From the NCBI GenBank assembly GCA_951406725.2, contig OX597815.1:122264001-122328000 (forward strand): a stretch of DNA of 64,000 nucleotides. The letters run 5' to 3'. Below, piece after piece: positions 13,901 to 64,000 of this stretch (positions within the stretch are counted from its first letter, which is position 1; each line of letters starts with the position of its first letter). This DNA comes from Octopus vulgaris (Eukaryota). A program made the translations under genes and the position numbers. Under the pieces are notes generated by a model. That model was given only the letters and a program-made list of their open reading frames with translations, made no database searches and had not been told where the DNA came from.

Positions 13901-16900
13901 AAATGATGATGAAGAATGATATTTTTGAGTTTTTAACAATGCACTGAAGCACCTCGTAAAAGTTAGCATACCTATTAAAATCTAATGAAATGACATGTTT
14001 AAAACAATCAATATTCATTAAATATATATCATTTAATGAATGACAAAAGTGTAGCAGTTTGGCTCTGGGGAAGCTATAAGATGTTGCATGAACACTCAGT
14101 GCTGGGTGCATGTTTGCTTAAAACAGAAACAGCTGTAAGCAGATCAAAGTGATTAAGTAACTCCTGTTCTTATGTCATTCATTAATTGATATTATATGAC
14201 TGTTTACTACTGTAAAGCATGAGTATATCGAGTTCTAACAACTGGCATTTAGTATCCCTATGCCTAAGCAGAACTATCATATATGTGTATAGATATCATC
14301 ATCATCATTTAACGTCCATTTTCCATGCTATCATGGGTTGGAAGGTTTGACAGGAGCTGGCTAAGCAGAAGACTGCACCAGGCTTCACTGTCTGTTTTGG
14401 CAGGGTGTTTTATGGCTGGACGCCCTTTCTAGATTTAAAAATGGATATTAAACATGACCAAGTTACATTTTTTAATATTCTAAGTACATGGGAAATGGAT
14501 GTAATTGCTGTAAAGGTGTAAATAGAAATAAAATGCAAGCTTTTAGATTAATGAAATATAAATAAATGATTTACCTGCTGATGCTTTGGGAAGAACAATA
14601 ATCTCAGTTTCCAATGGAAGACTAAGTCCAACTTCGTTAAAAGCCATGACTCTAAATTGGTAAGAATCTCCGGGTACAAGGCTTCTGATATAAGCATTAG
14701 TAGAATCAGCAGACACACGAGTACATTTTCGCCAGGCACTGTTTCGTCTGTCAAACCTTTCAACAATATAACCGAGTATACGAGCTCCACCATCCATAAC
14801 AGAGGGTGACCATTCAATGGTAACATTGTCTTCATTAACATCTTTGATAATTATTGGCCCAATAGGAACTGATGGGCAACCTGGACGAAAAACAAAAACG
14901 AAAATGGTATAAGCATTAATTTCATTTTTACTCACTTGTAATATATGTTTAATTTATTTTATTAAGTTATTAGCTTCATTCATTGGACTGTAGCCATTTG
15001 GGGTGCACTGCTTTCAAGGATATTAAACAATTATGTCAAACTCAGTACTTATGCTAGCTTGGAATTTATTTTATTGATTTCTTATTTTTAGATTACTAAG
15101 TTGCCCCTTGACATAAAAGGACATAATACCTTATTTGCATAAGTAAACAAAAACACAGCTATAGGTACTGACAAACATACACACATGTGGCATAGCTGTG
15201 TGGTAAGAAACTTACTTCCCAGCAATATGGTTCTGAGTTCAATCTGACTGCATGTTACTTTCAGCAAGTACCTTCTACTATAGCCTCAGGCTGACCAAAG
15301 CTTTGTGACTGGGTTTAATAGATGGAAATTGGAAGAAGCCTATTGTGTGTATGTGTATATATATATATATATATATATATATATATATATACATACATGT
15401 GTATGTGTCTATGTATATGTGTGTTTGTGTCTGTCCCCAACCACTGCTTGACAACCAGTGTTGTTTTGTTTATGTCCCTGTTACTTAGCAGTTCAGCAAT
15501 AAGAAACAAAAACAATAAGTACAACACTTTAAAAAATAAGTACTGGGGTAAATTTGCTCAATTAAACCCTTCACGGTGGTACCACAGCATGGCTACAGTC
15601 TAATGACAGAAACAAGAAAAAACTACATGAACACACACATGCATGCGTGTGCGCACATACACACACACAAATGTTTCTGCATGCACAGTCTCTGCCTAAG
15701 ACTTGCCCAAGATTCAATACTATGCGATCAAACCTAAAGCCACACACAGCTTCTTAATCACACAACTATATCAAAGTTCTGGATATTTCTTTGAATGAAA
15801 TTAGATAGGTTATTAATTGCAAGAAAATTTAATTCTTTTTATTTGTCATTCATATAATTGCAAATTTAGCTATCATTTGCTTTCATATTTGTATAAACCA
15901 ATATCAAAGTTTCAATTTCAATATAAAAATCATGTTTATTGGTTCTTCAAAATCATGTATATCTTCCTCAAGCTTTATGTACTGCAGATTAGTAAAATAT
16001 TGAAAAAAAAAAAATATATATATATATATACAATTGAAGAGAAAGATTCTATGTTAAACAAACCTGGGGCCTTCTTAGGTACAACTGTTTGAGGTAATTC
16101 TTTGTAGTCTCCCCAACCAGCAACATTCTTTGCTCTGATTCTGTAATATGTTTCAACATTTTCATAGAGGTCTCGGACTGTATATGAATGTACAGCAGCA
16201 TCCAGTGTAACAATTTCAGTCCAGTCAGAACCTGCCCAACTCTGTTCAATTGCATAGGTGGTAATTGGAGATCCACCATCATTAATTGGTTTTCTCCAGT
16301 AAAGGGAAGCAGACCATTGAGTAATTTGTCCAATATCAAGATCTTCAGGTACTCCAGGAAGTTCTATTGACAAAAAAGCAAAGTTATTATAAGAAATTTA
16401 CTTTAATATTTTTGATGGCATTTCTATATGAAGGCATTTTATTCAAGACTTTGAAAATTAGTTGAAAATTTTAAACCTTTGAATTCTATTTTATTCAAAA
16501 GGACCTTCCTAACCATTTGATGTTTTAAAAGATCATATATTTTTACAATTAAATATTATTAGGAATTGTATACAAAATAATTGTTTAAAATATTTTGTGC
16601 AGATGAATTCTAACAACAAAATCATATATGGGCCCTCAAGGGTCATATAGTCCAAGGATGAGAACCGCTGTTGAGAACTGTGTACTTCTACCAATACAAA
16701 TGATGAAAAATGCTTAGAATTTAAATATTTATAATCATGTTTCTTACAAAACTTTGTCAAATCTAAAATGTACAGACTGATGAAATATGTTTAATTTATG
16801 AATTACAAAATTAATTCTAACAAGTTTAAATCCATTTAAATATTCTAAAAAAAGGCTGTAAAATTTATAAATAAAAAAATAAAATCTTACCAATTGGTCT

Positions 16901-64000: not shown

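Follow-up and report, generated by a model that had tools for sequence, protein, structure and literature searches.

Fn3 exons in the window and extent of the rod

The window is the whole 64,000-nt stretch of Octopus vulgaris DNA analysed here (G000:C2:122,264,001-122,328,000 of a 2.8 Gb genome) and contains 57 minus-strand exons of about 300 nt at window positions 14,575-64,000, each coding for a single Fn3 domain. All of them pass the Pfam PF00041 cut-off of 25 bits (33.8-70.1 bits), and the spacing between the domains has a median of 496 nt and a maximum of 2,016 nt. I-set is absent among the Pfam families listed for all 57 exons, and an Ig HMM, trained on 30 Ig domains from the titin locus and able to pick up the half-domain Ig exons at a separate twitchin locus, gave no matches at E ≤ 1 across the array on either strand in frames of at least 25 aa. 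The count of 57 consecutive Fn3 exons and the start coordinate given in the preliminary description were exact, and its statement that no Ig exon lies between them is borne out by Pfam as well as by the locus-built HMM. The Fn3 motifs named there are common but not universal, W..P..[DN][GT]G being found in 43 of the 57 domains and [YF]xFx[VI]xAxNxxG in 53.

The run consists of 142 consecutive Fn3 domains with no Ig domain among them, from G000:C2:122,407,658 to 122,278,575 (614 kb were mapped), so that "at least 57" holds as a minimum but understates it. Rod domains 86-118 (window 35,819-64,000, minus strand), upstream of which the rod continues beyond the window, are encoded by 33 one-domain exons of about 294-306 nt, phase 1-1, and follow a strict A-B-C order with a 9-domain super-repeat. 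Rod domains 119-142 (window 14,575-34,763, minus strand) are encoded by 24 one-domain exons and are more divergent, with weak periodicity; the last five, 138-142, pair one to one by eye with the end of the scallop rod. Exon joins were taken from the RefSeq model. A phase-1 acceptor is on offer for all 142 rod domains and a phase-1 donor for 140, compared with 21 acceptors and 51 donors in phase 0 and 29 acceptors and 102 donors in phase 2. Unlike the other 136, domains 18-23 lie together in one 624-codon exon (G000:C2:122,385,424-122,387,295, minus strand, frame L006), likely due to the loss of five introns, and the splice sites assigned within them are chance finds since the six domains share one exon.

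Domains three apart share on average 47% identity and domains nine apart 61%, compared with about 36% off-period and at most 42% in 2,000 shuffles; at lag 18 the value is 57%, which does not exceed that at lag 9. The A-B-C order is unbroken through domains 2-118, and the last 24 domains are irregular. The rod would have grown by tandem duplication, with triplets arising first and 9-domain blocks later.

The titin/connectin gene around the rod

When the analysis was extended into the flanks, Pfam I-set matches were found on both sides of the rod and a kinase downstream, all on the same strand, and the protein is not the Ig-free giant that had been proposed. Directly upstream of the rod the order is Fn3x3-Ig2-Fn3x3-Ig2, with the nearest Ig 245 nt from domain 1, and further upstream there are about 30 Ig domains, giant PEVK-like frames, about 28 more Ig domains and a spectrin-like exon. 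The upstream Ig domains number about 60 in total by the locus-built HMM (split exons merged by eye), many of them confirmed by PF07679. The P+E+V+K content is 43-50% in seven of the eight giant minus-strand frames and 38% in the eighth, the threshold being 40% (Loreau 2025, PMC12063666). Four of the PEVK-like frames (2,685, 5,416, 1,748 and 1,547 codons, the second being the largest at the locus; G000:C2:122,494k-122,553k, minus strand, L017-L038) look like duplicated, perhaps alternative, spring exons because their starts are near-identical. Among the last I-band Ig exons there is also a 395-codon frame with G/Q/Y-rich repeats (G000:C2:122,423,280-122,424,464, minus strand, L010), which was not seen at the corresponding place in the RefSeq model XP_029652063.1 and is possibly an alternative exon or an internal first exon of an A-band-only form.

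Downstream, the rod is followed by Fn3 exon 143 (window 1,647-1,952, minus strand, 306 nt, phase 1-1), then, outside the window and on the same strand, by Fn3 144, Fn3 145, Ig, Ig, Fn3 and the kinase (G000:C2:122,224.6k-122,213.7k), and by further Ig domains. Long introns, the largest of about 27 kb, follow domain 142, and the kinase retains the HLDLKPEN and DFG motifs. Downstream of the kinase, just before an Ig, lies a 331-codon exon made up of short peptides repeated in tandem (G000:C2:122,164,829-122,165,821, minus strand, L030). The intron before Fn3 exon 143 harbors, amid AT-rich microsatellites, two long reverse-transcriptase-like frames of 491 codons (window 3,673-5,145, minus strand) and 711 codons (window 6,106-8,238, plus strand), both of which we take from their motifs to be LINE-type. 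The frame at G000:C2:122,710k recurs in the N-terminal part of XP_029652063.1, where SEC14 and spectrin, the marks of the SESTD1-CCDC141/zormin region upstream in titin/connectin, were recognised by eye, and from this start, taken from the RefSeq model, to the kinase and the Ig domains everything lies on one strand over about 600 kb. All exons over G000:C2:122,115k-122,728k sum to about 39,000-40,000 residues, an upper-side estimate as the frames include intron overhang, which is similar to or above the 38,138 residues of human titin (PMC12198301).

Because the domain order along the locus is that of titin, the gene is assigned to titin/connectin, in which the 57 exons make up the end of the 142-Fn3 run. 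RefSeq XP_029652063.1 represents the same gene and unites PEVK, Ig, junction and rod in one protein of about 34,000 aa (estimated from the file layout), which opens with a SEC14/spectrin-like part and continues over Ig, PEVK and junction into the rod. In the supplementary alignment of Hanashima 2025 (PMC12198301), the kinase stretches displayed for "Os_CON" XP_036371388.1 match the kinase of this locus with a single residue different. The rod is thus a segment of a titin gene and not a distinct giant-protein architecture, and "titin-like", expected in the preliminary description from automated annotation, is the correct name. The features of twitchin, namely Ig-Fn3-Fn3 core repeats and a twitchin-type kinase, belong instead to the separate locus at G000:C7:21.34-21.46 Mb, which has its own kinase. 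Motifs of the A-band type as defined by Fleming 2023 (PxPP, PxxDGGS and AxNxxG; PMC10665226) are present in the octopus class consensus lines, and two such motifs counted across the rod occur in 112 and 133 of the 142 domains, respectively. In a PDB search the best six of 9 matches were titin, including the thick-filament entries 8q6t and 8g4l and the A77-A78 tandem. The 7- and 11-domain Ig-Fn3 super-repeats are not present, as there is no Ig in the 142 domains and lags 7 and 11 are at the background of 36%. Extracellular Fn3 arrays are known from myotactin and usherin, and a protein of this type, with a signal peptide or membrane segment, was set aside, as the 142-domain rod, which was the part scanned, has no hydrophobic segment (top 19-residue hydropathy 1.17) and its flanks are titin domains. 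Two other long I-set Ig arrays are found in the genome, at G000:C1:158.65-159.30 Mb and C2:116.77-116.83 Mb.

Between domains 142 and 143 there is a 604-nt exon (window 11,794-12,397, minus strand) of about 201 codons, rich in Y, H, Q, S and R, with phase 1 in and phase 2 out. It matches no Pfam family, and no relatives of its product were found among 191 candidates of 351-2,000 aa, which is weak evidence. In XP_029652063.1 domain 142 is joined to this exon, whose donor is in turn spliced out of frame to the Fn3 exon 143 acceptor at window 1,952, so that the protein stops 16 codons past the 604-nt exon owing to the shift from phase 1 to phase 2. Without it domains 142 and 143 join in frame and the rod would comprise 145 consecutive Fn3 domains. 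Skipping of the exon would yield a full-length form with a 145-domain rod and a kinase keeping its catalytic motifs, and its inclusion a kinase-less form, although the latter might instead act as a signal for decay or come from a quirk of the annotation.

The end of XP_029652063.1 at the 604-nt exon, together with the long introns past domain 142, the citation of the kinase under another accession and the oyster titin and kinase likewise standing under two accessions, would suit an octopus gene that ends at this exon, with the kinase block as a separate gene and the rod as the C-terminus of a sallimus-like protein. The Ig-Ig-Fn3-kinase-Ig block is absent from the octopus model, but it is on the same strand and phase-compatible, exons 142 and 143 can be joined in phase, the join is uninterrupted in the scallop model, and one transcript model does reach the downstream block, since in the RefSeq model the Fn3 exon 143 acceptor is used; a separate kinase gene is unlikely, although it retains some plausibility. 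Hardly any credence can be given to a stand-alone Ig-free giant protein, for which the lack of Ig inside the 142 domains speaks, as does the unannotated 395-codon frame upstream of the junction if it were an internal first exon: even then the protein would have Ig domains at its start, and the position of an Ig exon so close to domain 1 and the continuity of the RefSeq and scallop models largely refute it. As to the domain count, most of domains 58-89 have a counterpart at a distance of 9, 18 or 27 domains with which they are 83-100% identical, as would be expected if near-identical blocks had been duplicated by the assembly. The units that recur are of unequal length (5.4, 9.4, 6.8 and 7.1 kb), and in their DNA stretches of 96-99% identity are interspersed with stretches of 68-89%, a pattern consistent with recent unequal crossing-over or conversion rather than with mis-assembly; the RefSeq protein shows the same four copies despite scattered residue differences from the present genome, and these blocks lie mostly outside the window. 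An inflated count is therefore very improbable.

Comparison with titins and twitchins of other animals

The octopus protein XP_029652063.1 (Loreau 2025, PMC12063666, data S1) has a near-identical rod with few residue differences and the same 604-nt exon, which partly anticipates an architecture that had been thought new, and Os_CON XP_036371388.1 (Hanashima 2025, PMC12198301) is the same gene with the same kinase. The scallop titin XP_021365920.1 from Mizuhopecten yessoensis shares the junction, the pure Fn3 run, A-B-C-like triplets and the terminal domains, its 43 consecutive Fn3 domains (counted by eye; 145 in octopus) being followed by Ig-Ig-Fn3-kinase in one model; it differs in having a second kinase and no counterpart of the 604-nt insert between the last rod domains. 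Vertebrate titin (TTN) has in common with the octopus locus the Ig/PEVK part, an Fn3-rich region of similar length, the Ig-Ig-Fn3-kinase-Ig block at the end and the Fn3 signature motifs, but in its A-band part Ig and Fn3 are combined in super-repeats of 7 and 11 domains (43 nm), whereas the octopus rod is Ig-free. Its kinase is called a pseudokinase in paper titles, in contrast to the octopus kinase with its preserved motifs. Drosophila Sallimus, arthropod I-connectin and C. elegans TTN-1 belong to the same locus type, with SEC14/spectrin followed by Ig and PEVK, and are described as I-band titins, the honeybee model ending after four Fn3 in a row. Twitchin and projectin have titin-class Fn3 and an MLCK-type kinase in common with the octopus gene and differ by their Ig-Fn3-Fn3 repeats.

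The relatives were scanned in sets of 120 and 142 proteins; most of the runs found come from fragments, so the run lengths given are lower bounds. The earlier limit of 2-3 Fn3 in a row for vertebrate A-band titin, twitchin and projectin agrees with the twitchin-named pieces, which reach 3, but not with the fish titin pieces P0036 and P0210, whose six are the longest vertebrate run seen here; the octopus rod, as had been stated, is a pure Fn3 rod of titin class and muscle type, and it is far longer than any vertebrate, twitchin or projectin run in the scan. Titin-type pure Fn3 runs of at least 17 domains are found in Lottia, at least 14 in Lingula and at least 14 in Rotaria (after FF-II-FFF-II), and of at least 18 and at least 19 in Saccoglossus, at least 15 in Ptychodera and at least 15 and at least 12 in Diadema. 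The Lottia run, alone among these, shows the same triplet (lag-3 identity 74%), and the hemichordate runs look separately expanded. A titin-like fragment of Lineus repeats FFF-II with no run above 3, which counts against the generality of long runs. The octopus classes show similar mean identity (35-39%) to vertebrate A-band, twitchin and hemichordate Fn3, and for this reason the origin of the rod is not placed by sequence. Other long Fn3 runs, among the 150 matches listed, were set aside as non-titin, many being low on the titin-type HMM, mostly at 30-60 bits, and one named match being bacterial.

Possible role of the rod in octopus muscle

Since the octopus domains carry A-band motifs and their best PDB matches are titin, the rod is probably a segment lying along and binding the myosin/paramyosin thick filament. 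Vertebrate A-band titin is bound along the thick filament in 11-domain repeats of 43 nm, at about 4 nm per domain (PMC12981300, PMC10665226). The octopus Ig/PEVK part would be an I-band spring anchored at Z material, and the rod, about 0.58 µm long at 4 nm per domain, would link this spring to the thick filament in the manner of vertebrate A-band titin, but with no Ig spacers. Assuming that 1,080 residues make one 43 nm repeat, a 305-residue triplet spans about 12 nm, and the lengths for nine and eighteen domains come to 36-37 nm and about 73 nm; the misfit of the first two values to the vertebrate register of 14.5 and 43 nm counts against the anchoring role. Squid thick filaments are 7.4 µm long in the arm and 0.81 µm in the tentacle, whose fibres are without an M band (PMC4757648), and a single rod cannot rule long filaments because 0.58 µm falls short of half of the 7.4 µm arm filament; in insects the filament length is set through force feedback instead. 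The word "titin" occurs nowhere in the accessible text of a cephalopod muscle review (PMC5430041).

The rod could instead be an expanded I/A-junction run off the thick filament, where, perhaps along actin, it would act as a long spacer or a stiff element in series, while twitchin alone does the A-band job. The rod does come directly after the junction motif, a true twitchin is present in the genome, a six-Fn3 run, presumably the I/A junction, exists in vertebrate titin pieces, and the actin crossover is close to the 36-37 nm repeat. Deletion of the I/A junction also left thick-filament length unchanged (PMC12981300, PMC10665226). However, the rod reaches the Ig-Ig-Fn3-kinase block, which is the position of A-band titin, and the elastic I-band tandems of vertebrates are Ig-only (PMC10665226), which makes the spacer role improbable.

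Both the octopus titin gene and its sequence had been public before, which makes the find less surprising, and XP_029652063.1 is among the titins behind the domain figure of Loreau 2025 (Fig. 1A), so the architecture is probably visible there; the accessible text calls I- and A-band features "more mixed" (PMC12063666). The Ig-free rod, its periodicity and the frameshifting exon are not described in the accessible parts of that paper or of Hanashima 2025 (PMC12198301), and a literature search that covered few subscription journals found no account of the Ig-free rod, the A-B-C/9-domain super-repeat, the threefold length gap of 43 versus 145 domains or the frameshifting 604-nt exon. Other molluscs share the Ig-free build, which seems to lack a description in words so far. 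Hanashima 2025 leaves the history of titin undecided between a split in protostomes, a fusion in chordates and a convergent rebuilding (PMC12198301). An I-band part, an Fn3 rod and a kinase in titin order beside a true twitchin would favour an ancestral full-length titin that was shortened in flies and nematodes.

A titin Fn3 region can evidently match the vertebrate A-band part in length and still do without Ig spacers. A more speculative proposal, to which we give little weight, is that a full-length titin of the vertebrate kind persisted in molluscs alongside twitchin, that its A-band part was remodelled into a ruler of Fn3 domains free of Ig and matched to the paramyosin core, and that splicing of the rod in cephalopods sets the thick-filament lengths that tune muscle speed. 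Six triplets come near the paramyosin repeat of 72.5 nm (PMC12040844), a match that may be due to chance, and, with almost all domains encoded by separate phase 1-1 exons, the rod could be shortened or lengthened by splicing. Squid muscles show a tenfold range in thick-filament length with the same myosin (PMC4757648), and the length and splicing of the rod are a candidate for what may underlie these differences.
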